64,000 bases of DNA from an uncultured bacterium (GTDB taxonomy: Bacteria; Margulisbacteria; WOR-1; JAKLHX01): NCBI GenBank assembly GCA_964597815.1, contig CAZQZN010000001.1:151965-215964 (forward strand), in the 5' to 3' direction. Below are positions 7,912 to 56,979 of the stretch, one piece after another. How positions within the stretch are numbered: position 1 is the stretch's first letter; each line of letters starts with the position of its first letter. Below the pieces are notes generated by a model. It worked only from the letters and a program-made list of their open reading frames with translations, searched no databases and had not been told where the DNA came from. The position numbers were made by a program, and so were the translations under genes.

Positions 7912-7949
7912 TATAAGAGAATAATATCATATAATTTAGTATTGTAATC

Positions 7950-9904: not shown

Positions 9905-9928
9905 AACACTTATTTATCGAACAGAACT

Positions 9929-11514: not shown

Positions 11515-11531
11515 AGCTCCTTTACAAATTT

Positions 11532-11966: not shown

Positions 11967-11981
11967 AAAATTCTCCCAATT

Positions 11982-12768: not shown

Positions 12769-12771
12769 ACT

Positions 12772-14025: not shown

Positions 14026-14035
14026 ACTAAATATA

Positions 14036-17127: not shown

Positions 17128-18183
17128 ATGAAAAAAATATTTTTTTCAGTGATAATTTTAATGTGTTTTGCTGTTTTTCTTTCATCGTGTGCCGGAAATT
17201 TCGGACAACAAGATGAAAAAGAGATTAATAAAAAAGATGAGCTAGAGGAAAACATTGTTGCAACACCCAAAATTGAAACATCTCAAACTTCTGAAGCTAT
17301 AAAAGTTTTTGGCTATCCTCAAAACACGGATGAAATCAATAATCAAGAGCAATATCGCCAAATTTTTGAGAATTTTACTGTAAAAAATATAGATGCGAGG
17401 AAAGCCTGTGAAATTTTTGCAAAAATTTTCCCTGAAGCAAGTTTTACTGAAGGGGCAAGGAGCAATCAAATAATAGTGAAAGCTATGCCGGTTGATATTG
17501 TCAGGATAAGAAAATTGTTTTCTTCAATTGATGTTCCTGTTCATCAGGTTATTATTGAAAGCCAGATTTTAGAATTGACGAAAAGCGATTTTGAAAACTT
17601 TGGATTTAGTTGGAATATTTCAAGAAATGGGATGAAAATGGCAGTAGAAAATTCGGCTATTCAATCAGACAAGATATATGCAACAATAAATGCGTTAAAA
17701 AGCAACGGGAAGGCGCGGTTGATCGCAAATCCAAGCATTGCGACAATTGATAATCAGGAAGCAAGTGTAAACATTGGCAGTAAAATTCCTTTTGCCGTTC
17801 CAGTAAATTCAACTTCCCAAGGAATGCAATGGACTATACAATATATTGACGCTGGGGTTTCATTAAAAATAACTCCAAAATTGGCTGATAATGATTACAT
17901 AATAGTTTCTGTAAATCCAGAAGTCAGCTCTATTTCAGAATGGAGGACAACTGCGGCCGGTGAATTTCCTGTCATATCAACTAGAAACGCCAGCACAAAA
18001 ATAAGAATTAAAAACGGGCAAACAATAGTGATTGCAGGACTGATAAATGAAACAGACAGAAAAAATATGTCAAAAATTCCAATAGCAGGCGATATGCCGA
18101 TTTTAGGGGCATTGTTTTCACAACAAACATTGGAAGAAGGGAATTCCGAGATTGTTTTTCTTATTAGGCCGCGAATAATATGA
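17128..18183 (+). CDS. Short secretin-family outer-membrane lipoprotein (one N domain plus secretin C domain)
   Basis: Lipobox FLSSCAGN. The C-terminal secretin domain reads ...GQTIVIAGLINETDRKNMSKIPIAGDMPILGALFSQQTLEEGNSEIVFLIRPRII. Confidence 0.8.
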   Translation: MKKIFFSVIILMCFAVFLSSCAGNFGQQDEKEINKKDELEENIVATPKIETSQTSEAIKVFGYPQNTDEINNQEQYRQIFENFTVKNIDARKACEIFAKIFPEASFTEGARSNQIIVKAMPVDIVRIRKLFSSIDVPVHQVIIESQILELTKSDFENFGFSWNISRNGMKMAVENSAIQSDKIYATINALKSNGKARLIANPSIATIDNQEASVNIGSKIPFAVPVNSTSQGMQWTIQYIDAGVSLKITPKLADNDYIIVSVNPEVSSISEWRTTAAGEFPVISTRNASTKIRIKNGQTIVIAGLINETDRKNMSKIPIAGDMPILGALFSQQTLEEGNSEIVFLIRPRII

Positions 18184-34619: not shown

Positions 34620-35096
34620 TTGTATAATTTAAATATAGTGCTTTTAGATCTAAACGGGTTATTAAAAGAAAAAGGCGTTAGAATCCTTTACAGTGAAAAT
34701 GTTTATGTGGAGGTTCCAAAGGAAGAAATAGACATTGTAAACCCAGTTAATGTCAATTTGGAGTTCACAAATACAGGTGATGGGCTTTGGATGCAGGGGA
34801 AAATTGTTGCGAATGTTCACTTAAACTGTTCGAGATGTCTTGAAAACTATGTTGGCCAAATTGTTGCTGTTGTTGAAGAGAGATTAAAAAAACAATCGGA
34901 TGTAGAGGAAGATGATATAGTTTATGAGATTGATGAACATGGGAATTTGGATCTGACAGAGGTTATAAGGCAGAGCCTGATTATGAATATTCCAATCAAA
35001 ACCCTTTGTTCAGAAAGTTGCGACGGTATAGAAATTGAAGAAGTAAAGAAGTTAATTGATCCAAGATTAGAGAAGTTAAAACAAATAAAATTATAG
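34620..35096 (+). CDS. yceD: YceD/DUF177 family protein (large-subunit biogenesis, precedes rpmF)
   Basis: Two Cys pairs (CSRCLENY, CSESCDG) and conserved synteny yceD-rpmF-plsX. Confidence 0.78.
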   Translation: MYNLNIVLLDLNGLLKEKGVRILYSENVYVEVPKEEIDIVNPVNVNLEFTNTGDGLWMQGKIVANVHLNCSRCLENYVGQIVAVVEERLKKQSDVEEDDIVYEIDEHGNLDLTEVIRQSLIMNIPIKTLCSESCDGIEIEEVKKLIDPRLEKLKQIKL

Positions 35097-35314: not shown

Positions 35315-36289
35315 TTGATACGGATTGCAATTGATGCGATGGGCGGAGATCATGCCCCCGAGGAAATAATCAAAGGTGCTGAGTCGTTTCTCAAAGAAGA
35401 AAATGTTTCTCTGATACTCGTCGGTGATAGAGAAAAAATTAGTCATTTAAGAAAAGATCTGCGCACCGAAATTGTTCATTGTAGCGAAGTTATTTCTATG
35501 AATGAACCTCCTGTGCAGGCTGTCAAACAGAAAAAAAACGCATCAATAAATGTTGCAATGGAATTGGTTAAGGAGGGGAAAGCCGATGCTGTCATTTCGG
35601 CTGGTAATACTGGTGCGATAATGGCATCTGCACTCTTTAAAATTGGCAGAATTGAAGGAGTTGAACGGCCTGCGATTGCAACAATTTTTCCAAATGTTCA
35701 TGGAGGAGAGTTTTTGCTTCTGGATATGGGTGCAAATGTTGACTGCAAGCCAAAGCACTTGGAGCAATTTGCTATGATGGGTTATCTTTATGCCGAAAAA
35801 GTTATGCATATAAAAAACCCAAGAGTAGGTCTCCTTAGCATTGGGACTGAAAAAGAAAAGGGGAATGAATTGACACAGCAATCATATGAATTAATAAAGC
35901 AAAAATCACTCAATTTTATTGGAAATGTCGAAGGAGGAGACCTTTTTACAAACAAAGTTGATGTTGTGGTGTGCGATGGTTTTGTTGGAAATGTTGTTCT
36001 AAAAATTTCCGAAAGTTTGTCAACACAGTTGTTTTTGATGTTGAAAGAAGAAATTAAAAAAGATTTGATCTCAAAACTTGGAGTGTTCTTTTTAAAAAAT
36101 TCTTTCAATAACTTTAAGAAGAAAATAGATTATGATGAACATGGTGCTGCTCCGTTGCTTGGAGTAAACGGCATTGTGTTTAAGGCACATGGCAGAGCAA
36201 AAGCAAAAGCGATAAAAAACGCAATCAGGGTTTGTTCTGAGGCGATAAAAAATGATATTGTAAAAAGTATAAGAGAAGGAATAAAATGA
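35315..36289 (+). CDS. plsX: Phosphate:acyl-ACP acyltransferase (TTG start)
   Basis: IAIDAMGGDHAPEE N-terminus. The only upstream in-frame start after the rpmF stop is TTG at 35315. Confidence 0.88.
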   Translation: MIRIAIDAMGGDHAPEEIIKGAESFLKEENVSLILVGDREKISHLRKDLRTEIVHCSEVISMNEPPVQAVKQKKNASINVAMELVKEGKADAVISAGNTGAIMASALFKIGRIEGVERPAIATIFPNVHGGEFLLLDMGANVDCKPKHLEQFAMMGYLYAEKVMHIKNPRVGLLSIGTEKEKGNELTQQSYELIKQKSLNFIGNVEGGDLFTNKVDVVVCDGFVGNVVLKISESLSTQLFLMLKEEIKKDLISKLGVFFLKNSFNNFKKKIDYDEHGAAPLLGVNGIVFKAHGRAKAKAIKNAIRVCSEAIKNDIVKSIREGIK

Positions 36290-37263
36290 AAAGCTCAAAA
36301 ATTGTTGGAACTGGATCCTGTTTGCCGGAAAAAATTTTGACAAACCTCGATTTAGAAAAAATTGTTGAAACCTCTGATGAATGGATAAAGACAAGAACTG
36401 GAATTTCTGAGAGAAGAATTACTGATGATGCTGTTGCGACTTCTGATTTGGCCATAAAAGCGGCAAAAAGTGCCATTGATATGTCTGGGATAAAAAGCAG
36501 TGATTTGGATTTAATAATTGTTGGCACCACTTCTCCAGATACTTTGTTTCCTTCCACAGCTTGCATTATCCAAAATCTTTTGGACGCCAAAAAAGCTGTT
36601 GCATTTGATGTGTCTGCGGCTTGTTCCGGCTTTAATTTTGCTTTATCAATAGCACACAATTTCATTTCGTCAAATGTTTATGGCAACGCACTTGTTATTG
36701 GAGCAGACACTCTAACAAAATATCTAAACTGGTCTGATAGAAATACATGTGTTTTGTTTGGCGATGGTGCTGGAGCGGTTGTTTTGACACAATGCGAAAA
36801 AAACAGCGGAATTTTGGCTAATTATCTTCATGCAGAGGGCAGTGGCGGCAAGTATCTTATTATGCCGGGCGGAGGAAGCCGTAATCCTAATCCAAAATCA
36901 GAGGAAGAACGTTGCATAAAAATGGATGGCAAAGAGGTTTTTAAATTTGCTGTAAGGGCTATGGAAGAAGGCATTATTAAAGTTGCTGAGATGGCAGATA
37001 TTGATTTAAGTGATATTGATTTGGTAATTCCACATCAGGCAAATGTCAGAATAATCGATCATGTTGCTAAAAAAATAGGAATTTCAAAAGAGAAATTCTT
37101 TACAAATTTGCAAAAATATGGAAATACTTCTGCTGCATCAGTTCCAATTGCCTTAGATGAGGCATACCGTAGCGGAATTGTGAAAAATGATGATATAATT
37201 GCTTTGGTTGGGTTTGGCGCTGGTTTGACCAGCGGAGCAAATTTAGTTAAATGGGAGGTATAG
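36286..37263 (+). CDS. fabH: 3-oxoacyl-ACP synthase III
   Basis: Active-site AACSGF, His/Asn motifs, and N-terminal SKIVGTGSCLPEK. Confidence 0.9.
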   Translation: MKSSKIVGTGSCLPEKILTNLDLEKIVETSDEWIKTRTGISERRITDDAVATSDLAIKAAKSAIDMSGIKSSDLDLIIVGTTSPDTLFPSTACIIQNLLDAKKAVAFDVSAACSGFNFALSIAHNFISSNVYGNALVIGADTLTKYLNWSDRNTCVLFGDGAGAVVLTQCEKNSGILANYLHAEGSGGKYLIMPGGGSRNPNPKSEEERCIKMDGKEVFKFAVRAMEEGIIKVAEMADIDLSDIDLVIPHQANVRIIDHVAKKIGISKEKFFTNLQKYGNTSAASVPIALDEAYRSGIVKNDDIIALVGFGAGLTSGANLVKWEV

Positions 37264-37273
37264 ACAATAAGTT

Positions 37274-38431
37274 ATGGAATATGGATTAACTGAAGAACAA
37301 ATAATGATAAGAGACCTTGCAAGAAAGATTTCTGTTGAAAAAGTCAAGCCAGTCAGAGCCGAACTTGATGAAACGGGCAAATTCCCATGGGATTTAATGA
37401 ATGAATTTGCAAAAGCTGACTTGTGCGGACTTTATATTCCTGAAAAATATGGCGGTTTTGGCGGAGGTTGTTTGGAATTTTGCCTCGCAACTGAGGAAAT
37501 AAGCAGAATTTGTGGTGGGGTTGGAGTAACTTTTGCTGCTTCTGCACTCGGGGCATTTCCTATTTTAATGTTTGGCACTGAAGAACAAAAAGAGAAATAT
37601 CTTCCTGACATAGCTTCTGGCAAAAAACTTGCCGCATTTGGCTTAACAGAAGCAAACGCTGGTTCGGATGCTGCTGGAATTCAGACAACTGCAAAAAAAG
37701 ATGGTGATTATTACATTTTAAATGGCACAAAACAATGGATAACAAATGGAGGAGAAGCAGAAACATACACTGTCATTGCGATGACTGACAAATCAAAAGG
37801 CAGCCGTGGTGCGACGGCATTTATACTTGAAAAAGGCATGAAAGGTTTTGACTTTGGGAAAAAGGAAAACAAAATGGGGATAAGGGCTTCGGCGACAAGG
37901 GAATTGATCTTTCAGGATTGCAAGGTTCACAAATCTCAAATACTTGGCAAAGAAGGAATGGGATTTATTGTTGCAATGAAAACCCTTGACAGAACAAGGC
38001 CCGGGATAGGCGCTCAGGCGGTTGGAATTGCGCAAGGAGCGTTAGATGAGGCGCTTGCATATTCAAAAACGAGAATTCAATTTGAGAAACCAATTTCTTC
38101 ATTTCAAGCTGTTCAACATATGCTTGCAGATATGGCAACACAGATTGAAGCAGCCCGAGCTCTTGTTTATGCAACGGCGAGGACTGTTGATGCCGGCGTT
38201 CAAGATATTTCAAAAGATAGTGCCATGTGCAAACTTTTTGCAAGTGATGTTGCAATGAAAGTGACAACAGATGCTGTTCAGATTTTTGGAGGATATGGCT
38301 ATATGAAGGAGTATCCAGTAGAAAAAATGATGCGTGATGCAAAAATCACTCAAATATATGAAGGCACCAATCAAATTCAACGAAATGTAATTGCTCTTTC
38401 ATTGATCAAAGAGTTGGCAGCGAAGAAATAA
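37274..38431 (+). CDS. Acyl-CoA dehydrogenase (short-chain/butyryl-CoA dehydrogenase-like) embedded in the fab operon
   Basis: ACAD family motifs GLTEANAGSDAAG and QIFGGYGYMKEYPVEKMMRDAKITQIYEGTNQIQR. Confidence 0.9.
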   Translation: MEYGLTEEQIMIRDLARKISVEKVKPVRAELDETGKFPWDLMNEFAKADLCGLYIPEKYGGFGGGCLEFCLATEEISRICGGVGVTFAASALGAFPILMFGTEEQKEKYLPDIASGKKLAAFGLTEANAGSDAAGIQTTAKKDGDYYILNGTKQWITNGGEAETYTVIAMTDKSKGSRGATAFILEKGMKGFDFGKKENKMGIRASATRELIFQDCKVHKSQILGKEGMGFIVAMKTLDRTRPGIGAQAVGIAQGALDEALAYSKTRIQFEKPISSFQAVQHMLADMATQIEAARALVYATARTVDAGVQDISKDSAMCKLFASDVAMKVTTDAVQIFGGYGYMKEYPVEKMMRDAKITQIYEGTNQIQRNVIALSLIKELAAKK

Positions 38432-38433
38432 CC

Positions 38434-39222
38434 ATGAACATAATAGTTTGTATAAAACAGGTGCCTGATACCACCGATGTAAAAATAGATCCAAAAACCA
38501 ACACCTTGATAAGAGAAGGGGTAAAAAGCATTATTAATCCATTTGATGAAAATGCGATAGAAGAAGCTTTGCGCATAAAAGAAAAATTTGGTGGAAAAGT
38601 AATTGTTATAACAATGGGGCCTTCACAAGCTGCAGATGCCTTAAAGACCGCAATTGCTATGGGCGCTGATGAAGCAGTGTTGATAAGCGACAGAGCTTTC
38701 GCTGGGGCGGATACTTGGGCAACATCATATACTTTATCTCAAGCAATAAAAAAAATCGGTACTTTTGATTTGGTTTTGTTTGGCAAACAGGCAATCGACG
38801 GTGATACAGCGCAAGTTGGGCCGGGTGTTGCAGAGTTTTTAGATATACCACAAATAACCTTTGCCGTAAATATAGAAATTGACAAAGAAAACAGAAAAAT
38901 CAAGGCAAAAAGACAGTTAGAAGATTCCTCAGAAACGATAGAAACAAATCTTCCTGCGGCAGTTACTGTAGTAAAACAAATAAATGAGCCGCGCATGCCG
39001 TCGTTAAAGGGACAAATCAGGGCAAAAAAAACCGAAATACCTGTTTGGACAGCTGATGATATACTTGCAGAACCGGACAATATTGGATTAAAGGGATCAC
39101 CAACTCAAGTTGTAAAAATTTTTACTCCTCCTCCGAGAGGCAATAGTCAAATTCTTGAAGGAACGCCTGAAGAGATTGCAGAAAAATTATTCCAAAAGTT
39201 AAAGGAGCAAAAGGTACTTTAA
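38434..39222 (+). CDS. etfB: Electron transfer flavoprotein beta subunit
   Basis: [13 protein letters not shown]... EtfB fold, about 260 aa. Confidence 0.9.
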
Positions 39223-40424
39223 TGGTTGAAGGAATTAGAGTAATACCTGAAAAATGCAAAGGATGCAAACTTTGTATTCCAGCGTGTCCATTTGGTGCCA
39301 TAGAAATTATTAATAAGGTCGCTGTAATAACAGATAAATGTGTTTTATGTGGCGCTTGTGTTGGAGCATGCAAATTCAATGCAATCATAATAGAAAAGAA
39401 AGAAGAATCACCAAAAAAAGATTTGTCAGGTTATAAAGGGATATGGGTTTTTGCTGAACAGCACAATGGCGAGCTTCAAACAGTTTCAATGGAACTTATT
39501 GCTGAAGGGAAAAAACTTGCAAAGGACATAAATTGTGATGTAACAGCAATACTTTTAGGTGCTGGTAATCTAAAAGATATGGCGCAGGAACTTATTAAAC
39601 ACGGTGCAGACAAAGTAATACTTGTTTCTGACAACAATTTGAAAAATTACCTTACGGAACCATTTGCTGATACAATCTCTTTCCTGATTGAAAAATATAA
39701 ACCGGAGATTTTTTTGCTTGGTGCTACTACAACCGGCAGAGATCTGGCTTCAAGAATAGCGGCAAGAATAAGGGTTGGACTTACTGCTGATTGCACTGGT
39801 TTGGATATTGATCCAGAAAAAAAGATATTATTGCAAACAAGGCCTGCTTTCGGCGGAAATATTATGGCAACTATTATTTCTCCAAATTTTAGACCTCAGA
39901 TGGCGACAGTCAGACCAAAAGTTTTCAAAAAACTTCCAAAAGATGATTCCAGAAAAGGACAAATAATAGAAGAACAAGCAAAAATAACCGAAAAATCTTT
40001 GAGGGCAAAAATTCTTGAAATAGTGAAATCAACTGAAAAAAAAGTTAATTTGGCTGAAGCCGAAATAATTGTTTCCGGAGGAAGAGGAATTGGCTGTGCA
40101 GAAAATTTCAAGATGATTCAAGAACTTGCCGAAGTTCTTGGTGGAGCAGTTGGGGCAAGCAGGGCAACTGTTGATGCTGGTTGGATATCGCAATACCATC
40201 AGGTAGGGCAGACGGGTAAAACAGTCAGCCCAAAAATATATTTTGCTTGTGGAATTTCTGGAGCAATTCAGCACTTAGCCGGCATGTCTTCCTCTGACAT
40301 AATCATAGCTATAAACAAAGATCCTTATGCTCCAATATTTAATGTTGCTACTTATGGGATAGTTGGAGATGTTCTTGAAATAGTTCCAGCTTTGACGAAA
40401 AAGTTTAAGGAGCTACTCTCTTGA
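39222..40424 (+). CDS. etfA: Electron transfer flavoprotein alpha subunit with N-terminal 2x[4Fe-4S] ferredoxin domain (CarE/FixB-like)
   Basis: [12 protein letters not shown] and [12 protein letters not shown] ferredoxin motifs precede EtfA domains, including the FAD-binding C-terminus. Confidence 0.9.
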
Positions 40425-41329
40425 CAGTTGCTTTTGTTTTTCCCGGACAAGGTTCTCAAAAGGTCGGAATGGGAAAAGATATTTATGATAATTTTGCCAA
40501 GGCAAGAAAAATTTTTGACGAAGCAAACGAAGCATTGGGATTTGATCTTAAAAAAATTTGTTTTGATGGGCCCGAAGATCAGTTAAAACTAACTGAAATA
40601 TCACAACCGGCAATTTTAACAACAAGCATAGCAATTTTAAGTTGTGTCGAAAGCAATCCATCTTTTGTTGCAGGCCATAGTTTAGGCGAATACAGTGCTT
40701 TGGTTTGTGCGAAAGTTTTAAATTTTTCAGATGCAGTCAGGATAGTCCATAAGCGTGGAAAATTTATGCAGGAAGCAGTACCTGTTGGAGAAGGTACTAT
40801 GGCAGCGGTAATTGGCTTGGATAGAGAAACGATTCTAAAATGCTGTCAAATGGCTTCCCAATATGGAGTTGTTGAAGCGGCAAATTTTAATTCACCCGGA
40901 CAAATAGTCCTTTCTGGCACCTTAAAAGCAGTTGAATATGCAAGCAAACTTTGTAAAGAAAACGGGGCAAAAAGAATAATACCATTACAAGTTAGCGCTC
41001 CTTTTCATTGTTCCCTTATGCAACCTGCTGCAGAAAAATTGGCTGTTGAATTGGAAAAGATCAATTTTTCAAACGCACAAATTCCTGTTGTTTCAAATGT
41101 AAATGCAAACCCAACAACAAATGGACAAGAGATCAAACAACTTCTAATAGAACAAGTTGTTAGTTCGGTATTGTGGGAAGATTCTATCAATAAGATGGTA
41201 AATTTAGGAGTTGATTCATTTGTTGAAATTGGATGTGGTAAGGTTTTGACCGGCCTGATTAAAAAAATAAATGGAAATGTTAAAATATACAATATCGAAG
41301 ATTCAGAATCTTTGAAGGAGTACAAATAA
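40421..41329 (+). CDS. fabD: Malonyl-CoA:ACP transacylase
   Basis: FVFPGQGSQ and [10 protein letters not shown] motifs. Confidence 0.9.
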
Positions 41330-42069
41330 TGAAGCTAAAAGGGCAAACGGCATTTATTACCGGGTCAGCACAAGGAATAGGGAAGGCAATCAGCCAGTTG
41401 CTTGCGCAAGAAGGGGCAAATATTGTTGTCTCAGACGTTAATTTGGAATCAGCATCAGCTACTGCTCAAGAAATTAAATCCAATTTTTTAGTTGAAGCAA
41501 TTGCAATAAAATGCAATGTTGCCATATCAGCAGAAGTTTCAGAAGCATTTAAGAAAACCATTGAGCAGTTTGGGAGAATAGATATTTTAGTCAATAATGC
41601 TGGAATAACAAGAGATTCTTTAATTATGAGAATGAAAGATGAAGATTGGGATGCGGTTATTAACGTTAATTTAAAAGGGGTTTTTAATGGCATAAAAGCT
41701 GTTGCTCCAATCATGATGAAACAAAAATATGGCAGAATAATAAATATCGCTTCAATTGTTGGGCAAATGGGAAATGTGGGACAGGCAAATTATTCTGCTT
41801 CAAAAGGTGGAGTGATAGCTCTTACAAAAACTGCTGCAAGAGAACTTGCTTCAAGAGGAATTACTGTTAATGCCATAGCTCCTGGATTTATCGATACAGA
41901 CATGACCAAGGTTTTGCCGGAAGAAGTAAAAGGTAAATTGAAAGAACAAATTCCGATGGGGATTCTTGGGACCCCCCAAGATATTGCTAAAGCAGTTTTA
42001 TTTCTTAGCTCTGATGCTCCTTATATCACAGGGCAGGTTATTGCTGTAAATGGTGGAATGTATATGTAA
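41329..42069 (+). CDS. fabG: 3-oxoacyl-ACP reductase
   Basis: TGSAQGIGKAI Rossmann; NAG; YSASKGG catalytic triad. Confidence 0.9.
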   Translation: MKLKGQTAFITGSAQGIGKAISQLLAQEGANIVVSDVNLESASATAQEIKSNFLVEAIAIKCNVAISAEVSEAFKKTIEQFGRIDILVNNAGITRDSLIMRMKDEDWDAVINVNLKGVFNGIKAVAPIMMKQKYGRIINIASIVGQMGNVGQANYSASKGGVIALTKTAARELASRGITVNAIAPGFIDTDMTKVLPEEVKGKLKEQIPMGILGTPQDIAKAVLFLSSDAPYITGQVIAVNGGMYM

Positions 42070-42151
42070 ATTAATTGTCTTGACGGTTTCTTCCATAACT
42101 TTTAGAAGTTATAATATAATAAATTGTAAGAAAGGCAGGTGAATGGGTAAA

Positions 42152-42397
42152 ATGGATGAAAAGGAAATATTTGAAAAAGTAAAAAAAGTGGTGGTTGAAC
42201 AACTTGGTGTCAGCGATTCTGAAGTAACGGAAAAATCATCTTTCGTAGATGATTTGGGGGCAGATTCTCTAGACACGGTTGAGTTAGTTATGGCTTTAGA
42301 GGAAGCATTTGGGCTTGAAATCCCAGATGAAGAAGCTGAAAAAATAAAAACAGTGGGCGATACTGTAAAGTATATAATGTCCCACGCGAAAAACTGA
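42152..42397 (+). CDS. acpP: Acyl carrier protein
   Basis: [18 protein letters not shown] with the phosphopantetheine Ser. The start is taken at the second ATG (RBS aggtga 9 nt upstream); the track's ATG at 42143 abuts the RBS. Confidence 0.9.
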
Positions 42398-43371
42398 TGA
42401 AATTGCCAACATTAAAAATTGGAAATCTTTTAGCCAAAATTCCAATAATTCAAGGTGGTATGTCCATAAGAATTTCTGGCGGGAAATTGGCTGGCGCTGT
42501 TGCAGCTACTGGTGCAATTGGCGTGATAGGAGCATCCGGCCTTGAACATGAAGAATTGGCCAACGAAATAAAAACGGCCAGAGAAATAGCAAATGGCGGC
42601 ATAATCGGGATAAACATACTCTATGCCGCCACCGATTTTTTGGGGATTGTAAAAACTGCAATAAAAGAAAAAATAGATTTTATAACTTCCGGTGCTGGAT
42701 TTTCCCGAGATCTTTTCAAAATTGGAAAAGAAGCCAATGTTCCAATAATTCCTATTGTGTCTTCAGGCAAACTCGCAACTCTTGCTGAGCAACTTGGAGC
42801 GGCTGCTATAGTTGCTGAAAGCAAAGAAGCCGGCGGTCATCTTGGAACTCTGGAAAAGACAACCGAACAACTCTTAAAAGAAGTAAAGTCCTCTGTAAAA
42901 AATATACCTGTTATTGCAGCTGGTGGGATGGCTGATGGTTATGATATAGCGAAAATGTTAAATTTGGGTGCTGATGGAGTTCAGCTTGCCACAAGGTTTA
43001 TTATCTCTGAAGAGTGCAATGCAGCACTTCCTTATAAAATGGTTCATGCAAACACAACTAATCCAAATGATGTGATAATAATAAAGAGCCCTGTTGGTAT
43101 GCCCGGTAGAGCCATAAGAAACAAGTTGACAAATGATATGTTAAAAGGTATTTATCCTCCAATACCATACTGTGACAACTGCCTTAAATTTTGCTCAAAA
43201 CAATATTGCATTTTCGATGTTTTGAAAAAAGCCCAAAAGGGTGATATCGAAAATGGATTGATTTTTACGGGAGAGAGCATTTCAAAAATTAAAGATAAGG
43301 TTATAAAACCTGTTGCTGAAATTATCAGACAACTGGTCAAGGAGGCAGAATTAGCTTATGTTGGAACGTAG
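42397..43371 (+). CDS. fabK: Enoyl-ACP reductase II (FMN-dependent NPD/FabK family)
   Basis: IIQGGMSIRISGGKLAGAVAATGAIGVIGASG... TIM-barrel NPD family. Confidence 0.82.
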   Translation: MKLPTLKIGNLLAKIPIIQGGMSIRISGGKLAGAVAATGAIGVIGASGLEHEELANEIKTAREIANGGIIGINILYAATDFLGIVKTAIKEKIDFITSGAGFSRDLFKIGKEANVPIIPIVSSGKLATLAEQLGAAAIVAESKEAGGHLGTLEKTTEQLLKEVKSSVKNIPVIAAGGMADGYDIAKMLNLGADGVQLATRFIISEECNAALPYKMVHANTTNPNDVIIIKSPVGMPGRAIRNKLTNDMLKGIYPPIPYCDNCLKFCSKQYCIFDVLKKAQKGDIENGLIFTGESISKIKDKVIKPVAEIIRQLVKEAELAYVGT

Positions 43372-44602
43372 AGTAGTTGTTACAGGAGTTGGCGCTGTAA
43401 CTCCTATTGGTATAGGAAAAGAAAACTTTTGGAATGCATTAAAATCAGGGAAAAATGGAGTTGGCAAAATTTCTTATTTTGATCCTTCGCCTTTTGATAC
43501 CCAAATTGCTGCTGAAGTAAAAGATTTTGATCCTTCAATATATTTGGACAAAAAAGAGGCAAGAAGACTCGTTAATTTTATTGTTTTTGCAATTGCCGCT
43601 TCGAAGATGGCGTTAGATGATTCTGGTTTAGAAATAAATGAAAGCAATGCGCCGAATGTCGGTGTTTTAATTGGTTCTGGGATAGGAGGCCTAAAATTTC
43701 TTGAAGAACAGTCAAAAATTTTGTGTGAAAAAGGCCCTTCAAGGTGTTCCCCATTTATGGTGCCTCTTATGATAAATGATATGGCAGCTGGAATGGTGTC
43801 AATAAAAACAGGGGCAAAGGGCCCAAATAGCTGCACGACAACCGCATGTGCTTCCGGCACTAATTCAATTGGAGATGCTTATGAAATAATAAAGAGGGGA
43901 GCAGCCGATGTTATGATAACCGGTGGCACAGAAGCTGCTATTACACCTCTTGGCATTGCTGGATTTTGTGCCGCACAAGCACTTTCAAGAAGAAATGATT
44001 CGCCTGAGAAAGCGTCGCGTCCATTTGATGCTCAAAGAGATGGCTTTGTGATGGGAGAGGGAGCAGGGATTGTAATTTTAGAAGAGTTAGAACATGCAAA
44101 AAAACGCGGGGCACAAATTTATGCTGAAGTTGTAGGATATGGGATGAGCGGTGATGCATTTCACATGACTGCGCCTCACGAAACTGGAGACGGGGCAATA
44201 AGGGCTATGAAAGCCGCGATTAAAAATGCTGGCATTTCTCCCGAAAAAATTGATTATATTAACGCTCATGGCACATCGACTCAATTAAACGACAAGCTGG
44301 AAACTCTTGCTATAAAAAAAGTATTTGGAGAATATTCAAAAAAAATTGCAATCAACTCAACAAAATCAATGATTGGTCATCTCTTGGGTGCTGCTGGTGG
44401 TGTTGAATTTGTCGCGATGGTTCTTTCAGTAAAAAATGATTTTATTCACCCTACAATAAATTATGAATATCCCGATCCAGAGTGCGATTTGGATTATGTG
44501 CCAAATGTCGGAAGAGATCAAAAAATCAATTATGCTATGAGCAATTCTTTTGGATTTGGCGGACATAATGCTGTCATAATTTGCAAAAAATTCAACGCCT
44601 AA
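43358..44602 (+). CDS. fabF: 3-oxoacyl-ACP synthase II
   Basis: Active-site Cys (TTACASG) and the characteristic INAHGTST and KSMIGHLLGAAG His motifs. Confidence 0.9.
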   Translation: MLERRVVVTGVGAVTPIGIGKENFWNALKSGKNGVGKISYFDPSPFDTQIAAEVKDFDPSIYLDKKEARRLVNFIVFAIAASKMALDDSGLEINESNAPNVGVLIGSGIGGLKFLEEQSKILCEKGPSRCSPFMVPLMINDMAAGMVSIKTGAKGPNSCTTTACASGTNSIGDAYEIIKRGAADVMITGGTEAAITPLGIAGFCAAQALSRRNDSPEKASRPFDAQRDGFVMGEGAGIVILEELEHAKKRGAQIYAEVVGYGMSGDAFHMTAPHETGDGAIRAMKAAIKNAGISPEKIDYINAHGTSTQLNDKLETLAIKKVFGEYSKKIAINSTKSMIGHLLGAAGGVEFVAMVLSVKNDFIHPTINYEYPDPECDLDYVPNVGRDQKINYAMSNSFGFGGHNAVIICKKFNA

Positions 44603-46638
44603 TTCTGAGCATTATTTTTAAAAACCAAACTAAAAGTAGTCCCTTTTTCAATTTCGCTTTCAACAGATATTGCTGCGTTGTGTTCATTGGCAAATCTAAA
44701 AGCTATAGCGAGTCCTAATCCTGTGCCATGTTCTTTTGTTGTAAAAAACGGATCAAATATTTTCCCCAGCATTTCTTTTGATATTCCTTTTCCGGTGTCA
44801 GAAATTTTAATTATAACTTCTTCATCTTTTTTTTCAGAGTGTAATGACAATATTCCTCCATTTGGCATTGCGTCAATAGCGTTTATAAACAAGTTTAATA
44901 GAACCTGCTTCATTCTGTTTTTGTCAGCCAATACAATATGATCCTCGCTTGTTTGATTTGTTATGATAATATTTTTTCCTTTTGCCAAATCGCGCACAAG
45001 AATTATTGTTTCTTCTGAAAGTTCTTTTGGGTTGATTTTCTCTATTACAGGAGTGGATTGTTTTGAATAGTCTTGAATACCTTGTAAAATGAGTTTTATT
45101 CTTCTTATTTCATTTTGGAGCAATACTGAATAATTGTCCAAAAATTCTTTATTATCAATTTGATGTGGGAGAAGTTGCGAAAAAATTGAGACAAAAGTCA
45201 AGGCATTTTTTACTTCATGCGCAATGCCAGCTATAACAACACCCAAACTTGCCAATTTTTCAAGTTTTAATGATTTTTCAAGAGATTTAATTTTTTGTTT
45301 ATATCTAATGGCGTTATCAATTCCGGCAGCGGTTTGATTTGCCAAGGTTTCAAAAAGCTGAATTTCTTCATCTGAAAATGGTGTCATATCTTTTTTGCAG
45401 TCAGAAGCGAGAAATCCCAAGAGTTTTTGTTCTTCACCACCAAAACAAGGAACAAGCAAAGTTATGTCCTTGTCAAAAATATCTATTTCCTCTTTGACGA
45501 TTGATGATTTTGTTTTTATTAATTCTTTAATAGTACTGTTTTCTTGAGAAATAAATGTGCCTTTAAGCTTTGTCAAAGAACCTTTTGCACTTGTGCAAAT
45601 ATATGCTGAGCATTCCTCATCTATGATAAAGGTTGCAACACCGTTCAATTTCAGAGTTATTGACGATGTATTGGTAATAAATTTTGAAAATTCTTCAATT
45701 GTTCTGAGTTTTTTGATTTTGTGCGAAAATTTTACTGCAATTTTTTCTGCCAAGAGCTTTGTTTTGAAAAATGTTTTATCAATAAATGAAATAGAAAAGT
45801 TCATAAGCGGGTAATATGCTATTGAAGCGATAATCAGAAATGGAAGAGTGCCCCAAAAAGAATTTAGATTTATAAACGGCAAAGATATATTGCTTGTAAT
45901 AAACATTATTGAGAAAAATATGACAGTAAACAAAACTGTTGAAACAGAATATAAAACACTTTTCCTGATGAGCATTTCAATGTTCATAAGCCTGTATCTT
46001 GTTATGGCATATGTTGTGAATGAGACAAATATTACTGTTGCAGAAGGACCAATAAAATTCAGTTTTGAAGTGCCTAATAGAGGAAGAATCAAATTGGTTA
46101 TTATGCCAATTAATGTTGAAATAACCATGCCAAAGAACATATATGATAATTTTGCTTTAATTAATGGTGTTGAAATTTTATATTTTTTGTATAGGATAAA
46201 GAATCCCACGATCACAAATGAAACGAAATATATTGCAAAAATGCTGTTGCCAATCCCATAGGCAACTTCTCTGTCAAAGCTGTTCACAGATTTTACAATG
46301 ATATCGGTTGGAATCATCGGTAAAAACAAAAGCCATGGTGAAAATATCGCTAATATATGCCATATTCCAAATGGTTTTTCTTTTTCAGAAAATAAAAATG
46401 AAAAATATAAAAAAGAGGATGGGATTAAGATTGGTCCGAGGAACATTAATCTTGCCCAAAACAAAGGATAGTTTGTCTGCCAAAACATAAATGTAGCAAA
46501 ATTCCAAATTGCGACTCCAATAATAATTGTAAATAAGGACAAATTTAAATGTCTTTTTGGCCCGTTTTTTAAAACAACAAAAGCCAAAAATAAATTTAGC
46601 AAAAATGCTGAAAATAGTATTAATGTTTTGAACATCAT
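44599..46638 (-). CDS. Sensor histidine kinase HK1, with N-terminal 7TM receptor-type membrane domain (HisKA_7TM-like), middle GAF/PAS-like region, DHp and HATPase
   Basis: Seven hydrophobic helices in the first ~300 aa. H-box IAHEVKNALTFV (His codon at 45218-45220). N/G1/G2 boxes LFINAIDAM, DTGKGI, GTGLGLAI. No receiver domain. Confidence 0.85.
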   Translation of the reverse strand: MMFKTLILFSAFLLNLFLAFVVLKNGPKRHLNLSLFTIIIGVAIWNFATFMFWQTNYPLFWARLMFLGPILIPSSFLYFSFLFSEKEKPFGIWHILAIFSPWLLFLPMIPTDIIVKSVNSFDREVAYGIGNSIFAIYFVSFVIVGFFILYKKYKISTPLIKAKLSYMFFGMVISTLIGIITNLILPLLGTSKLNFIGPSATVIFVSFTTYAITRYRLMNIEMLIRKSVLYSVSTVLFTVIFFSIMFITSNISLPFINLNSFWGTLPFLIIASIAYYPLMNFSISFIDKTFFKTKLLAEKIAVKFSHKIKKLRTIEEFSKFITNTSSITLKLNGVATFIIDEECSAYICTSAKGSLTKLKGTFISQENSTIKELIKTKSSIVKEEIDIFDKDITLLVPCFGGEEQKLLGFLASDCKKDMTPFSDEEIQLFETLANQTAAGIDNAIRYKQKIKSLEKSLKLEKLASLGVVIAGIAHEVKNALTFVSIFSQLLPHQIDNKEFLDNYSVLLQNEIRRIKLILQGIQDYSKQSTPVIEKINPKELSEETIILVRDLAKGKNIIITNQTSEDHIVLADKNRMKQVLLNLFINAIDAMPNGGILSLHSEKKDEEVIIKISDTGKGISKEMLGKIFDPFFTTKEHGTGLGLAIAFRFANEHNAAISVESEIEKGTTFSLVFKNNAQN

Positions 46639-47207
46639 ATTTTCAAAATTTTAACAAGTTTTTTTATTAAATTTGCTCTTCTCACATTTTTTTGATCTTT
46701 TTCGTAAGAAGAATTGTTATCGATATCCAGCGCCATTGCGCATGCTTTGCCGACATCATAAAAGTCAAACTTTAGCAAAGTATTAAATCCAAATTTTTTG
46801 TATAGTTCTATATTTTCTGATTTTCTCTCCAACGAAAATATCACGATTCTTTTTGCCCCATGTTCCTTAGCGTATTCATAAGCCAAAACCATAAGGCCAA
46901 GAGAAACGAACCCTTTTCTTTCTTCAGGCAATACCGCCAATTTTTGTATTTCTGCCATTGGTTTGTCTTTGAACTTTTTAAGGTCAACGAATTTTTCTAT
47001 CGGAAGATTTTCTGTGCCGGTTACAACTGTTATGACGCCAATAATTCTATTTTCTTTTTTTGCTATAAAGTGGGTTGAGGTTTTGTCAAAAGAGCTTGTT
47101 ATTGCTTCTTTTGGATAATGATCTTCATTAATGAAGACCTTCTCTCTAATGGCGATAATATCTGATAAATTTTTGTCGCCTTTTATTTGTTCAAATGTAT
47201 AATCCAT
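46635..47207 (-). CDS. GNAT-fold acyltransferase (possibly N-acyl amino acid synthase / LuxI-like subfamily; the subfamily assignment is tentative)
   Basis: IAIREKVFINEDHY...FD...H pattern and QKLAVLPEERKGFVSLGL resemble the R..VF..E/D..FD core of N-acyl synthase GNATs. 190 aa. It overlaps the HK1 start by 4 nt. Confidence 0.55.
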   Translation of the reverse strand: MDYTFEQIKGDKNLSDIIAIREKVFINEDHYPKEAITSSFDKTSTHFIAKKENRIIGVITVVTGTENLPIEKFVDLKKFKDKPMAEIQKLAVLPEERKGFVSLGLMVLAYEYAKEHGAKRIVIFSLERKSENIELYKKFGFNTLLKFDFYDVGKACAMALDIDNNSSYEKDQKNVRRANLIKKLVKILKI

Positions 47208-48010
47208 TATTTATCTACTATACCGCTTACTAATATACCTTGTCCAGCATATACTAATTTAGATTTTACTTCTTTAAAGCCGTTTTTTGATAAAAGATCC
47301 TTTATCTCTTCTCTAGAAAAGTATTTATATGCCCCTTTCTTTTGCTTATTGTTAATTATTTGGTTATAAAATAACATTTTGATTGTTGGCAATATAAGCC
47401 CAAATGCCTTAATAAGAGATTTTAGAAGTCCTAATTTTTTTCTGCCTATTCTTAATGTTTCAATGTATATTTTTTTTGGATCAAATCCTTTTTTTAAAGT
47501 TGCAATAATAAGTTTGCCTCCGGGTTTTAAAATTCGGTGGGATTCTTTAAGAGCGGATTCTCTTCCTTTGTCGCTTAAAATATAGAAAACATTTATGGAA
47601 ATAATTCTATCAAATGTATTTGATTGAAATTTGCTTTTTTTGCTAATATCTCCAAATTCTATTTTTATGTTTTCTGAAAAGATTTTTTTTTGTGCTATTT
47701 CTAATGCCTCCGGTATAATATCTATCCCAATATATTCAATTCTATTTTTTTGCAAAAGTGGTATAAGATTTCCAGTCCCGCAACCAGCGTCCAAAACCTG
47801 CTGATCAGCATCTAGTTGTGCCTCTTGAACAACTTTTTTCAGTAATGTTTGATAAGAATAAGATTCGTTGAGCACGTCATAGACTTTGAAATAATTCTTC
47901 CAAAAATTTTTTCCAAGGAATTTCTTGCTGAAATTTCTAAAAAAACTTTTTATAGAAAATCTTTTTCCAAACATATTTCTAATTTTCCAAAATAAAAGCA
48001 GTTTTATCAA
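47207..48010 (-). CDS. Class I SAM-dependent methyltransferase
   Basis: Motif I VLDAGCGTGNL, motif post-I IGIDI, motif II/III region. A likely alternative start is Met13 (nt 47974). It overlaps the GNAT start by 1 nt. Confidence 0.8.
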   Translation of the reverse strand: MIKLLLFWKIRNMFGKRFSIKSFFRNFSKKFLGKNFWKNYFKVYDVLNESYSYQTLLKKVVQEAQLDADQQVLDAGCGTGNLIPLLQKNRIEYIGIDIIPEALEIAQKKIFSENIKIEFGDISKKSKFQSNTFDRIISINVFYILSDKGRESALKESHRILKPGGKLIIATLKKGFDPKKIYIETLRIGRKKLGLLKSLIKAFGLILPTIKMLFYNQIINNKQKKGAYKYFSREEIKDLLSKNGFKEVKSKLVYAGQGILVSGIVDK

Positions 48011-48020
48011 TTATTAATAA

Positions 48021-48040
48021 ATATCCAATATTTTGGATAT
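48021..48040. promoter_or_regulatory. Perfect 8-bp inverted repeat ATATCCAA-TATT-TTGGATAT in the divergent control region between the two operons (candidate operator)
   Basis: Read directly from the sequence. It lies just upstream of the minus-strand MT gene and 160 nt upstream of the plus-strand reductase gene. Confidence 0.3.
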
Positions 48041-48146
48041 TTTGTCAATTGTAGAACTAAAAGGCTTATTCAGCTAGTTGTTTCTTGCGGGTTAAGGAAG
48101 TAAATAGAAAAGCTGATACTAATTACAATTGGATTGATCCATTTTT

Positions 48147-48175
48147 TTGCTTTATCAAACAAAAACGGCTATAAT
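48147..48175 (+). promoter_or_regulatory. Sigma70-like promoter (TTGCTT-17 nt-TATAAT) for the reductase-thioesterase-HK2 operon
   Basis: -35 at 48147-48152 and -10 at 48170-48175. The -10 ends 24 nt before the ATG at 48200. Confidence 0.45.
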
Positions 48176-48199
48176 AGAATAAACAAAAAGGAATAGTTT

Positions 48200-49393
48200 A
48201 TGAAAATAGCCATTACTGGTGTTACAGGATTACTTGGAAGGAATTTATTTTATGAAATTTTAAAGCAAAACTTAAACAATACGAATATAAAAATATTTGT
48301 TTTTGGCAGAAATCAAGGGAGCAAGTCTTTAAAACAAAGATTGATAGATGAGATAAAAAATGATGGCAGAATGTATCTTGGTATAACGACCGAACAAAAA
48401 TTAAAGAATTTTTTTGAACATTTTGAAGAAGTGATAAGGCCAGTTCATTTTGATCTGGCAAAAACTGATTTGGGAATTTCAAATCAAGATTTTGAGGAAT
48501 TAAAAAAACAAAAAATAGAGAAATTTTTCCATCTCGCGGCGCTGACAGATTTTCGTGTAACCCCCCTTATTAAAAAAAAATTAGATGAGGTAAATGTTGA
48601 AGGAACAAAGAAAGTAATAAATTTAATCGGAGAGATTGGAGTCAAACACTTAATTTTTAGTGGGTCTGCATATTCTGCTGGAATGACAAGCGGTATTGTT
48701 ATGCCGGATTGCGCAAATCCAATGGGAAAATTCAGAAATTATTATGAGCAAACAAAATTGATTGCTGAGGATGCGATCAAAGAATTTTCTAAGGAGAGTA
48801 AAATCAATTATCAGATTTTTCGCTTAACCGGAATTGGAGGCCGCTTAATTGAACAGCCTATTGGGCATGTTAGCAAATACGATATATTTTATGGATGGAT
48901 GATGTTTTTCTTTAAGCAGCGATTGTCTTCTCTAGGAGAGAAATTTTCTAATTACAATGAACCGCTAGAAATAAATGTTAGAATTGCGCTTAATAAAAAA
49001 GGTGGGATGAATGTTGCTCCTGCCGATTATGCGGCAAAAATAATGTACTTAACTTCAATTTTTGGCAATTCCAATGAGAGTTATCATATCGTAAATGATA
49101 TTGATATTCCAAATCAAAGATGTGTGGAGTTAATGTTGGAAGCATTAAATATAACTGGTTGGCAAATTGTCGATGATATTCCAAAAGAGAAAAATAAAAT
49201 TGAGCGGTTTTATTATAAGAGTGTTGGTGATATCTTTACTCCTTATGTAATGACTGATAAAATAGTTTACAATATAGACAATCTTGAGAGTATAAGAAAA
49301 AAATATAAAATCGAATGTCCGCCTATGACAGAGGACAATTTCAAAAAGTTGTTAAATTTTGCTAAAGAAAATAATTTTGGAGTAAAGATTTGA
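48200..49393 (+). CDS. Thioester-reductase-type SDR (fatty acyl-CoA/ACP reductase-like, NAD_binding_4/'male sterility' domain)
   Basis: ITGVTGLLGRNLFYEILKQ...IKIFVFGR...KQRLIDEI...VHFDLAKTDLGISNQDFEELKKQKIEKFFHLAALTDF reproduces the GxTGFLG...CLVR...GDL...LGL...HxAA pattern of terminal thioester reductases. Confidence 0.72.
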   Translation: MKIAITGVTGLLGRNLFYEILKQNLNNTNIKIFVFGRNQGSKSLKQRLIDEIKNDGRMYLGITTEQKLKNFFEHFEEVIRPVHFDLAKTDLGISNQDFEELKKQKIEKFFHLAALTDFRVTPLIKKKLDEVNVEGTKKVINLIGEIGVKHLIFSGSAYSAGMTSGIVMPDCANPMGKFRNYYEQTKLIAEDAIKEFSKESKINYQIFRLTGIGGRLIEQPIGHVSKYDIFYGWMMFFFKQRLSSLGEKFSNYNEPLEINVRIALNKKGGMNVAPADYAAKIMYLTSIFGNSNESYHIVNDIDIPNQRCVELMLEALNITGWQIVDDIPKEKNKIERFYYKSVGDIFTPYVMTDKIVYNIDNLESIRKKYKIECPPMTEDNFKKLLNFAKENNFGVKI

Positions 49394-56253: not shown

Positions 56254-56979
56254 ATGACTGAAATAAGAGAAATTGGTTCTTCTAATATTTCTTCTGCAAG
56301 AAATCAAAATGTTTCTGAGAGGGCTGCTGTTACAAAATCTCCAAGCTCAGCAGAAAGAAAAAACGTTGTTTCTCAAAATTCGGCAAATCAGACTGACTTG
56401 GCCAATTCTGACTTATTCAAGGCACTTGAAAATGGTGATATAAACGCTATTAAAACCGCTTTGTCTAAGGGCGCAAAAGTCAACGCAACAAATGAAGAGG
56501 GCTTAACCCCATTGATGATTGCTGCTAAAGGTGGGAATTTGGAAGCGGTAAAAGCTTTGATTTCAGCAAAAGCTGATGTTAATGCAGAGGATGTTTTTGG
56601 TTTGACACCTCTTATGTATGCAACAATTTTTGATAAGACAGAAGTTGCTAAATTTTTGATAAATTCTAAGGCACATATTAATGATGAAGTTGATGAGCTT
56701 GGCAAAAATGCTTTTATGTATGCTGTAACAAATAACAATGTTGAACTTGTTAAAGCTATGATAAACGCAAAAGCTGATGTCAATACTACAGATAACCAAG
56801 GTCTTACACCGCTAATGATAGCAGCATCAAATGGAAATGCAAAAATAGTAAATCTTTTGCTTGATGCAAAAGCAAAGGTAGATGTTAAAGACAATTTAGG
56901 TACTACGGCTTTGATGTATGCTAAAACAAATGGCAATGCTGAAATAGTAAAAGCGCTCATTGCTCATGGAGCAAAATAA
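56254..56979 (+). CDS. Ankyrin-repeat protein (6 repeats) with ~55-aa Ser/Asn-rich disordered N-terminal leader and no signal peptide
   Basis: Repeated G.TPLM.A...GN...VK.LI...A.VN modules; GGAGG RBS upstream of the ATG. Confidence 0.85.
   Translation: MTEIREIGSSNISSARNQNVSERAAVTKSPSSAERKNVVSQNSANQTDLANSDLFKALENGDINAIKTALSKGAKVNATNEEGLTPLMIAAKGGNLEAVKALISAKADVNAEDVFGLTPLMYATIFDKTEVAKFLINSKAHINDEVDELGKNAFMYAVTNNNVELVKAMINAKADVNTTDNQGLTPLMIAASNGNAKIVNLLLDAKAKVDVKDNLGTTALMYAKTNGNAEIVKALIAHGAK

Follow-up and report, generated by a model that had tools for sequence, protein, structure and literature searches.

The window analysed here, a 64,000-nucleotide stretch of DNA from an uncultured bacterium of the WOR-1 lineage of Margulisbacteria (positions 151,965 to 215,964 of contig CAZQZN010000001.1 in GenBank assembly GCA_964597815.1), raises the question of why the genes for an acyl-coenzyme A (CoA) dehydrogenase (Acd) and for the two subunits of an electron-transferring flavoprotein (Etf), referred to below as the trio, are located inside an operon for type II fatty-acid synthesis (FASII). 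The open reading frames of the window and their matches to Pfam and NCBIfam models gave the order yceD-rpmF-plsX-fabH-[acd-etfB-etfA]-fabD-fabG-acpP-NMO-fabF on the + strand, which confirmed the order from plsX to fabF given in a preliminary description of the same DNA and placed yceD and rpmF in front of it. The Etf of the trio carries the sequence signatures of bifurcating Etfs, and the clade to which the Acd belongs is linked to fab genes. Because Acd and a ferredoxin-fused Etf sit inside fatty-acid synthesis operons across several phyla, we propose, with a probability of about 50%, that the trio encodes an NADH-dependent, ferredoxin-reducing bifurcating enoyl-acyl carrier protein (ACP) reductase, an enzyme of the Bcd/EtfAB-CarCDE kind recruited to FASII.

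The trio occupies positions 37274-40424, where the preliminary description had placed it, and the identities of its products are backed by both Pfam and NCBIfam: acd (37274..38431, +; 385 residues) encodes Acyl-CoA_dh N, M and C domains, etfB (38434..39222, +; 262 residues) a member of the ETF beta family, and etfA (39222..40424, +; 400 residues) two Fer4 domains followed by ETF and ETF_alpha domains. EtfB carries at residues 122-130 the exact motif DGDTAQVGP of the second flavin adenine dinucleotide (FAD), which was described in the structural study of Ldh-EtfAB as the recognition motif of the bifurcating FAD and as missing in non-bifurcating Etfs (PMC9232219). Human ETFB, whose sequence is identical to 1efv_B, has DDDCNQTGQ at this site. 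When compared with solved structures, EtfB scored 276 bits against CarD, 260 against C. difficile EtfB, 253 against the T. maritima, 245 against the A. fermentans protein and 221 against LctB, all of which are bifurcating relatives, versus 70-127 bits against non-bifurcating structures (127 for human ETFB), and EtfA scored 306-447 bits against bifurcating structures versus about 140-173 against non-bifurcating ones. For EtfB, EtfA and Acd alike, the solved proteins that match best are without exception subunits of bifurcating or confurcating complexes, and the exact motif was found in 67 of the 72 EtfB proteins that adjoin a ferredoxin-fused EtfA in other genomes. Judged by its sequence, the Etf is of the electron-bifurcating type.

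The N-terminal domain of EtfA (approximately residues 1-66; nucleotides 39222-39419) is a 2x[4Fe-4S] ferredoxin domain with two CX2CX2CX3C motifs (Cys12/15/18/22 and Cys40/43/46/50) that are invariant in 15 homologues, and eight cysteines were found within the first 60 aligned EtfA residues in 72 of the 82 loci scored. The best solved match of EtfA was CarE (6fah_A, 447 bits, residues 5-395); the alignment starts at residue 5, and the match therefore covers the ferredoxin domain, so that the likeness of this domain to that of CarE, which had been pointed out before, held. For the non-bifurcating Etf of C. propionicum, an insertion has been described as blocking the access of ferredoxin; EtfB of the window aligns end to end with CarD (also 262 residues) with small gaps only. 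Because of the motif, the scores against structures and the eight cysteines, the trio is, on the strength of its protein sequences, a complex of the Bcd/EtfAB type to which a CarE-type ferredoxin domain has been added. The closest NCBIfam models of the three proteins are those of the acryloyl-CoA reductase subunits of C. propionicum, and an assignment of the trio as AcrABC was rejected, as all three scores were below the cut-offs (AcrC 466.8 bits, cut-off 640; AcrB 262.2, cut-off 475; AcrA 388.8, cut-off 600).

Acd, the candidate catalytic subunit of the proposed enoyl-ACP reductase, is Bcd-like: its best solved relatives are Bcd of C. difficile (5ol2_C, 435 bits) and Bcd of A. fermentans (4l1f, 425 bits), followed at a distance by CarC (337 bits), and the catalytic Glu363 in IYEGT is invariant in the Acd alignment. 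In a distance tree, however, the Acds that lie beside a ferredoxin-fused EtfA in Margulis- and Saganbacteria, Omnitrophota, Nitrospirota and Dehalococcoidia formed one clade, whose members are 62-92% identical to the window Acd and which is separate from the Bcds of C. difficile and A. fermentans (55-56% identical) and from the Firmicutes loci. This clade includes Acds both with and without adjoining fab genes. Fourteen positions, taken from the alignment only, set the fab-linked clade apart from Bcd; one of the fourteen, the TRP segment, is also present in 3pfd, the nearest mycobacterial acyl-CoA dehydrogenase structure. When the window proteins were mapped onto the genome loci by tblastn, the conservation of Acd across phyla equalled that of acpP and exceeded that of fabH, fabD, fabG, fabF and plsX. 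Candidatus Margulisiibacteriota, Saganbacteria and WOR-1 supply the closest named homologues of Acd, EtfB, EtfA and the NMO-family protein.

The linkage of the trio to fab genes was followed by scanning one genome per species with the ferredoxin-EtfA alignment, which gave 80 loci, and by scanning metagenome contigs with the Acd alignment for further loci (loci are denoted by L numbers); L081, L082, L085 and L086 were added by exact look-up. The order of the window recurs in Margulis- and Saganbacteria in L001 (Margulisiibacteriota), L081 (Saganbacteria) and L085 (a 1.77-Mb contig), and in modified form in L082, with unrelated genes between etfA and fabD, and L087, without fabH; the arrangement is thus kept in relatives. 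The same insertion point between fabH and fabD, without the NMO-family gene, was found in Nitrospirota (L040, L045, L046, L058) and also in WS1 (L034), where the Acd is divergent. Elsewhere the trio follows fabG-acpP-fabF, in Omnitrophota and in loci labelled as Planctomycetes (L020, L028, L030, L032, L033, L036, L039, L054), or the order is plsX-fabH-fabD-fabG-acpP-fabF-[trio]-smc (L071), [trio]-FKBP-yceD-rpmF-fabD-fabG in Dehalococcoidia (L069), or fabF-rnc-[trio] (L086). The metagenome contigs added rpmF-[trio]-fabG (L123, L124), fabH-[trio]-fabG-acpP-fabF (L133, L149), fabF-[acd] (L088, L137) and fabG-[acd]-acpP-fabF (L105). In further metagenome loci, Acd without its Etf is found in the order plsX-[acd]-fabD-fabG-acpP-fabF in L091, L106, L107, L111, L115, L120 (8001-9164) and L121; in these seven loci, Acd fills the usual slot of fabH, and neither fabH nor etf was found in the flanks compared.

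Taken together, the Acd clade adjoins fab genes in at least nine arrangements (plsX-fabH-[trio]-fabD, plsX-[acd]-fabD, fabG-[acd]-acpP, fabF-[trio], fabF-[acd], fabF-rnc-[trio], rpmF-[trio]-fabG, fabH-[trio]-fabG and [trio]...yceD-rpmF-fabD) and in at least six named phyla, reaching beyond Margulis- and Saganbacteria into Nitrospirota, Omnitrophota, Desulfobacterota, Spirochaetota and Dehalococcoidia. A fab gene lies within 1.5 kb on the same strand in 14 of 29 complete trios on genome contigs that have flanks of 3 kb or more on either side. In the metagenomes, direct adjacency to a fab or rpmF gene was seen in 23 loci whose Acd is at least 60% identical to that of the window, as against none of the 12 loci below 60%. 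A look-up by protein clusters pointed to Syntrophorhabdales (L091), Desulfobulbaceae, Nitrospirota, Omnitrophota or Ratteibacteria, and Exilispira (Spirochaetota) as hosts. In the Exilispira-like locus L132 (Spirochaetota; 5750-15351), which reads fabH-fabZ-tetR-[acd-etfB-etfA]-fabI-GDPD-rnfC-rnfD, the rnfC and rnfD genes just downstream of the trio encode a possible sink for ferredoxin.

Two side observations were made on these loci. In Thermodesulfovibrionales (L077, 6365-11170; L080, 8731-11170), the order is acpS-etfB-ferredoxin-fused etfA-fabD with no Acd, and in L077 genes for a membrane protein with Fer4, CCG and VTT domains and for a DUF2064 protein lie upstream of acpS; this Etf is linked to genes for ACP and FASII, with a partner enzyme that is different or distant. 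In the Saganbacteria locus L081 (GCA_026387835.1; 12111-14138), fabG was called as two genes and the NMO-family gene was uncalled, with matches in two frames, which suggests frameshifts or assembly errors of this metagenome-assembled genome.

Competing pathways that could employ the trio were sought in the same material. No thiolase, crotonase or hydroxyacyl-CoA dehydrogenase was found by Pfam in the 64-kb window, and clustering of all open reading frames of the 80 genome loci gave no recurrent neighbour of the trio from beta-oxidation or a butyrate pathway; the recurrent neighbours were glgC, an acetyltransferase, smc, a GGDEF protein and rnc. According to published tables of KEGG orthologues (KO), 5/5 Riflemargulisbacteria and 24/26 Saganbacteria have no thiolase, none of these genomes has Hbd, and FabI is missing from 5/5 and 26/26, respectively. 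Of the same genomes, 5/5 and 23/26 have a call for Bcd, and 5/5 and 25/26 have one for Etf; FabI is present in 3/3 Marinamargulisbacteria, from which both Bcd and Etf are missing (PMC6349859). This complementary pattern of FabI versus Bcd/Etf fits a reductase role, and the trio could stand in for the FabI that is missing from the Margulis- and Saganbacteria tables. With an E. coli FabI sequence as the query, no true homologue was found in the loci compared, except in L132.

CoA and ACP present their acyl groups through the same pantetheine thioester. In Firmicutes operons, fabK occupies the slot between fabH/acpP and fabD, to which the place of the trio in the window operon corresponds. Bcd/EtfAB performs the equivalent chemistry on crotonyl-CoA (PMC5691135). 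In the proposed mechanism, NADH would reduce the second FAD on EtfB, where the electron pair would be split. One electron would pass through the FAD of EtfA to the FAD of Acd, and two such rounds would reduce trans-2-enoyl-ACP to acyl-ACP; the other electron would leave through the two [4Fe-4S] clusters of the N-terminal domain of EtfA to ferredoxin (Fd). The net reaction would be 2 NADH + enoyl-ACP + 2 Fd(ox) -> 2 NAD+ + acyl-ACP + 2 Fd(red), and the low-potential electrons from each elongation cycle could be used by Rnf or hydrogenases. The sequences establish the gene content, the bifurcation signatures of the Etf and the conserved fab linkage of the Acd clade; that the substrate is ACP-bound, that the reaction runs in the reductive direction and that it is coupled to ferredoxin is what we infer.

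Several observations weigh against the trio being an enoyl-ACP reductase of this kind. Acd is far nearer to CoA-dependent Bcd (435 bits) than to prolyl-ACP dehydrogenase (4irn, 211 bits); the model of the carrier-protein-dependent MbtN gave it 70.8 bits with a cut-off of 700, it was likewise below the cut-offs of PigA and RedW, two further carrier-protein-dependent relatives in NCBIfam, and a search among the clade-specific residues identified no ACP-docking signature. The fab genes have conserved neighbours outside fatty-acid synthesis as well, namely yceD, rpmF, rnc and smc, and linkage alone is therefore no proof of a function in fatty-acid synthesis. In L132, a FabI-family gene (328 bits) lies directly 3' of the trio, so that the trio is not always the only candidate reductase, and in the window operon the FabK/FabX-like NMO-family protein could itself be the reductase. 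The absences in the KO tables are soft, because FabZ and the NMO-family gene, too, are missing from them in most Margulis- and Saganbacteria genomes. Finally, Matheus Carnevali et al. (2019), who noticed "Bcd/EtfAB" in Margulis- and Saganbacteria and did not mention the fab context, judged the Etf unlikely to bifurcate, citing an AMP-binding domain (PMC6349859); this judgement is contradicted by the exact DGDTAQVGP motif of EtfB.

The NMO-family gene (42397..43371, +) had been called a separate FabK in the preliminary description, an identification that does not stand as given: its product scored 188.5 bits against the FabK model TIGR03151, well under the cut-off of 453.1, and carries a FabX-type four-cysteine [4Fe-4S] motif. 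Against solved structures, H. pylori FabX (7e1q, 148 bits) and C. difficile FabK (7l00, 147 bits) were equally good matches; the C-terminal 123 residues gave 43 bits with FabX and 23 bits with FabK, which has no cysteines in that region. Cys259/262/266/271 align with the FabX ligands Cys300/304/308/320, the first being offset by one residue, and are invariant together with the catalytic His148 in 12 homologues. Other features depart from FabX: the identity is about 35%, the cysteine spacing is CX2CX3CX4C, the helix insertion of FabX that bears the ACP-binding Arg164 is missing, and Thr130 of FabX aligns with an arginine. The FabX paper uses more than 50% identity for membership, and the protein falls under this value. 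Its predicted structure (AlphaFold, predicted local distance difference test score 81; Foldseek) resembles FabX with a template modelling (TM) score of 0.85 and FabK with 0.80-0.82, the cysteine loop being of low confidence. None of its named homologues is annotated as FabK. Among the loci compared, the gene is confined to Margulis- and Saganbacteria, where it stands at acpP-NMO-fabF; FabK (K02371) has no entry for Saganbacteria in the KO tables, yet the contigs have this FabK/FabX-like gene in that place. With its score under the FabK cut-off and its FabX-type motif, the protein stands between FabK and FabX and its role is ambiguous: it may reduce enoyl-ACP with the help of its Fe-S cluster, serve like FabX in making unsaturated fatty acids, or do both.

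It is conceivable, though in our view unlikely, that this [4Fe-4S] flavoprotein is the real enoyl-ACP reductase, fed by ferredoxin or by the ferredoxin domain of EtfA, and that Acd-EtfBA has another job linked to FASII, for example the supply of low-potential electrons or the reduction of a short enoyl-CoA to a primer for FabH. The barrel is FabK-like, with a predicted fold close to that of FabK and the catalytic His148 kept, it is without the ACP-binding insertion of FabX, and acpP-NMO-fabF is conserved in Margulis- and Saganbacteria. Furthermore, FabX has its four-cysteine subdomain in place of the NAD(P)H motif found in FabK, according to the FabX paper, and the same type of subdomain in the window protein implies that an external electron donor would be needed; in the anaerobe F. 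nucleatum, overexpression of a FabX homologue partly offsets the inhibition of FabK (PMC11091888). However, Nitrospirota, Omnitrophota, Desulfobacterota and Dehalococcoidia keep the linkage of Acd but do not have the gene at their fab-linked loci, and its protein is under the cut-off of the FabK model. In many loci Acd stands inside the fab block without Etf, which suits a catalytic role in FASII and not a supply of electrons, and of the enzymes for a CoA primer of FabH, thiolase, Hbd and crotonase do not recur near the trio in the 80 loci, thiolase being almost always and Hbd always absent in the KO tables.

Alternatively, the trio could be an ordinary Bcd/EtfAB that acts on acyl-CoA in fermentation or degradation and is a passenger of a housekeeping block without any role in FASII. 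The 55-56% identity of Acd to true Bcd, its best solved relative, and its database annotation as butyryl-CoA dehydrogenase speak for this explanation, as do the non-FAS passenger genes that the block is known to carry and the location of about half of the evaluable trios away from fab genes, many of those in Omnitrophota lying between glgC-acetyltransferase and smc. We nevertheless regard it as quite improbable, as Acd occupies several internal positions in fab blocks (fabH|fabD, plsX|fabD and fabG|acpP), which would not be expected of a passive passenger, and the fab linkage is specific to the Acd clade that is at least 60% identical. In addition, the partner enzymes of a CoA pathway were not found nearby, either in the 64-kb window or in the 80 loci, and thiolase and Hbd are missing from nearly all Margulis- and Saganbacteria genomes of the published tables (PMC6349859).

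A reverse, confurcating direction may also be considered, in which the trio would be an oxygen-independent acyl-ACP dehydrogenase, reduced ferredoxin helping to drive the oxidation of acyl-ACP to NADH so that unsaturated fatty acids can be made, with trans-2-enoyl-ACP isomerised to the cis-3 form by Acd or by the FabX-like protein, as an anaerobic counterpart of the oxygen-requiring FabX; acyl-CoA dehydrogenases can show 3,2-enoyl isomerase side activity. Related Etf complexes are reversible, for example Ldh-EtfAB, which also bears a ferredoxin domain (PMC9232219), the acceptor of H. pylori FabX is oxygen, which is required and would be unavailable to strict anaerobes, a FabX-like gene is present in the window operon, and the FabI gene beside the trio in L132 recalls the pair of FabI and FabX in H. 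pylori. This possibility is very unlikely, as FabZ already supplies trans-2-enoyl-ACP in each cycle, so that backtracking would have no clear gain absent a dedicated isomerase, no evidence for an isomerase function was found in this analysis, and the FabX-like gene is missing from most fab-linked loci.

The reading of the trio as a bifurcating enoyl-ACP reductase therefore remains the one that we prefer, and the earlier idea of an Etf-dependent, possibly bifurcating reductase in FASII is partly supported, by the conserved linkage and the EtfB signature; the separate FabK and the co-translation that had accompanied it do not stand as given. Of all steps of bacterial fatty-acid synthesis, that of the enoyl-ACP reductase varies most, and it is one of the major targets of antibiotics; four types of the enzyme are known. 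The reduction of the enoyl group is exergonic, with the acceptor at about -10 mV versus -320 mV for NADH, and this energy is wasted by FabI. The trio might tentatively be taken as a fifth, unrelated class, spread over many anaerobic phyla and replacing or standing beside FabI and FabK, in which each cycle would yield reduced ferredoxin, a generalisation to which we give slightly less than an even chance. If it is true, the fifth type would be Etf-dependent, ferredoxin-reducing and from an unrelated family, and "Bcd/Etf" genes in metagenomes, which now serve as markers of butyrate fermentation and beta-oxidation, would have to be reread. Anaerobes near the thermodynamic limit would then regain energy even from lipid biosynthesis, feeding Rnf or hydrogenases. 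No description of an Etf-dependent or bifurcating enoyl-ACP reductase, of an Etf-linked acyl-ACP dehydrogenase or of an Fe-S FabK was found in open-access papers or bioRxiv; the enzyme family is known, and its FASII context, its conservation across phyla and the proposed role are undescribed in the open-access papers and preprints searched.

Most of the core fab genes that surround the trio were above their own NCBIfam cut-offs. The block, all of it on the + strand, begins with yceD (DUF177; 34620..35096; Pfam YceD, 59.6 bits) and rpmF for ribosomal protein L32 (35108..35311; an open reading frame with a GGAGG site upstream), and YceD and Ribosomal_L32p occupy the same slots in L081, L082 and L085. 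These are followed by plsX (phosphate acyltransferase; 35315..36289; TIGR00182, 409.7 bits, cut-off 243.4) and fabH (beta-ketoacyl-ACP synthase III; 36286..37263; TIGR00747, 411.8 bits, cut-off 292.1). Downstream of the trio lie fabD (malonyl-CoA:ACP transacylase; 40421..41329; TIGR00128, 391.2 bits, cut-off 260.9), fabG (3-oxoacyl-ACP reductase; 41329..42069; TIGR01830, 327.2 bits, cut-off 297.75), acpP (ACP; 42143..42397; TIGR00517, 118.8 bits, cut-off 70.45) and, after the NMO-family gene, fabF as the last gene of the operon (beta-ketoacyl-ACP synthase II; 43358..44602; TIGR03150, 657.8 bits, cut-off 493.75), 3' of which a histidine kinase gene is convergent.

Junctions of 0-4 nucleotides had been reported throughout this operon. 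This is correct for the 2-nucleotide gap between acd and etfB, the 1-nucleotide overlaps of etfB with etfA, fabD with fabG and acpP with the NMO-family gene, and the 4-nucleotide overlap of etfA with fabD, and incorrect for the gaps between fabH and acd (10 nucleotides) and between fabG and acpP (73 nucleotides) and for the 14-nucleotide overlap of the NMO-family gene with fabF. The statement that the trio is co-translated with the fab genes does not hold as written, having been drawn from the tight junctions only. GGAG-type ribosome-binding sites are present upstream of most starts in the operon. A scan of the window for promoters and terminators gave counts equal to those of shuffled sequence, and the terminator matches on the + strand were all inside coding regions. 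A recent horizontal insertion of the trio was ruled out, because its GC content (0.37-0.40) and GC content at third codon positions (0.24-0.29) equal the values of the neighbouring genes and the order is kept in relatives.

The remainder of the window is mostly housekeeping (ddl, ftsQ, ftsZ, metK, an xerC-like gene, clp, radA and sensor kinases). A group of three genes (46635-49393) with a HisKA_7TM sensor kinase on either side follows directly on the fab operon and may be a lipid-modifying cluster. The first (46635-47207, -) encodes a GNAT/FeeM-like N-acyl amino acid synthase, the second (47207-48010, -) a SAM methyltransferase and the third (48200-49393, +) an NAD_binding_4 "male sterility" protein resembling fatty-acyl reductases. 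An open reading frame of 2251 residues (57168-63923, -) has no Pfam match at E <= 1e-4, and an adjacent gene on the opposite strand encodes an ankyrin-repeat protein (56254-56979). Nor did Pfam match, at E <= 1e-5, open reading frames of 678, 329, 160 and 239 residues (18213-20249 +, 14036-15025 -, 239-1465 +); the one of 678 residues is preceded by a secretin gene (17128-18183).

When the trio is compared with known systems, it shares with Bcd/EtfAB of C. difficile and A. fermentans the same three subunit families, the second-FAD motif of EtfB and the catalytic glutamate. In contrast to these enzymes, the window EtfA has an additional 2x[4Fe-4S] domain, the Acd belongs to a separate clade, and the genes are in a FASII operon and not with thl-hbd-crt, the substrate being probably ACP-bound. 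The resemblance to CarCDE of Acetobacterium woodii is closest in the Etf, as EtfA matches CarE best, including the two-cluster domain, and EtfB matches CarD best, whereas Acd is nearer to Bcd than to CarC, the context is lipid synthesis, and caffeate-activating genes do not accompany the trio. With FabI, FabL and FabV of the SDR family and FabK of the NMO family, the trio would share the reaction from trans-2-enoyl-ACP to acyl-ACP; unlike them, it is from an unrelated family, is predicted to hold three FADs and two Fe-S clusters in its three subunits, and would spend two NADH per reduction with reduced ferredoxin as a co-product. The NMO-family protein of the window is similar to H. pylori FabX, a dehydrogenase/isomerase with flavin mononucleotide and a [4Fe-4S] cluster, in the cysteine ligands, the catalytic histidine and the predicted fold, and differs from it in overall sequence, in the cysteine spacing and in the missing Arg164 insertion; moreover, FabX needs oxygen, whereas the host of the window is probably a strict anaerobe. 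A functional precedent is that of Euglena gracilis, in which an Acd and an ETF reduce enoyl-CoA in anaerobic mitochondrial fatty-acid synthesis and thereby conserve energy (PMC6587861). There, as proposed here, Acd and ETF serve as the enoyl reductase of a cycle that synthesises fatty acids, but in this eukaryote the substrates are CoA-bound in a reversal of beta-oxidation, the electrons come from complex I via rhodoquinone, and the ETF is non-bifurcating.

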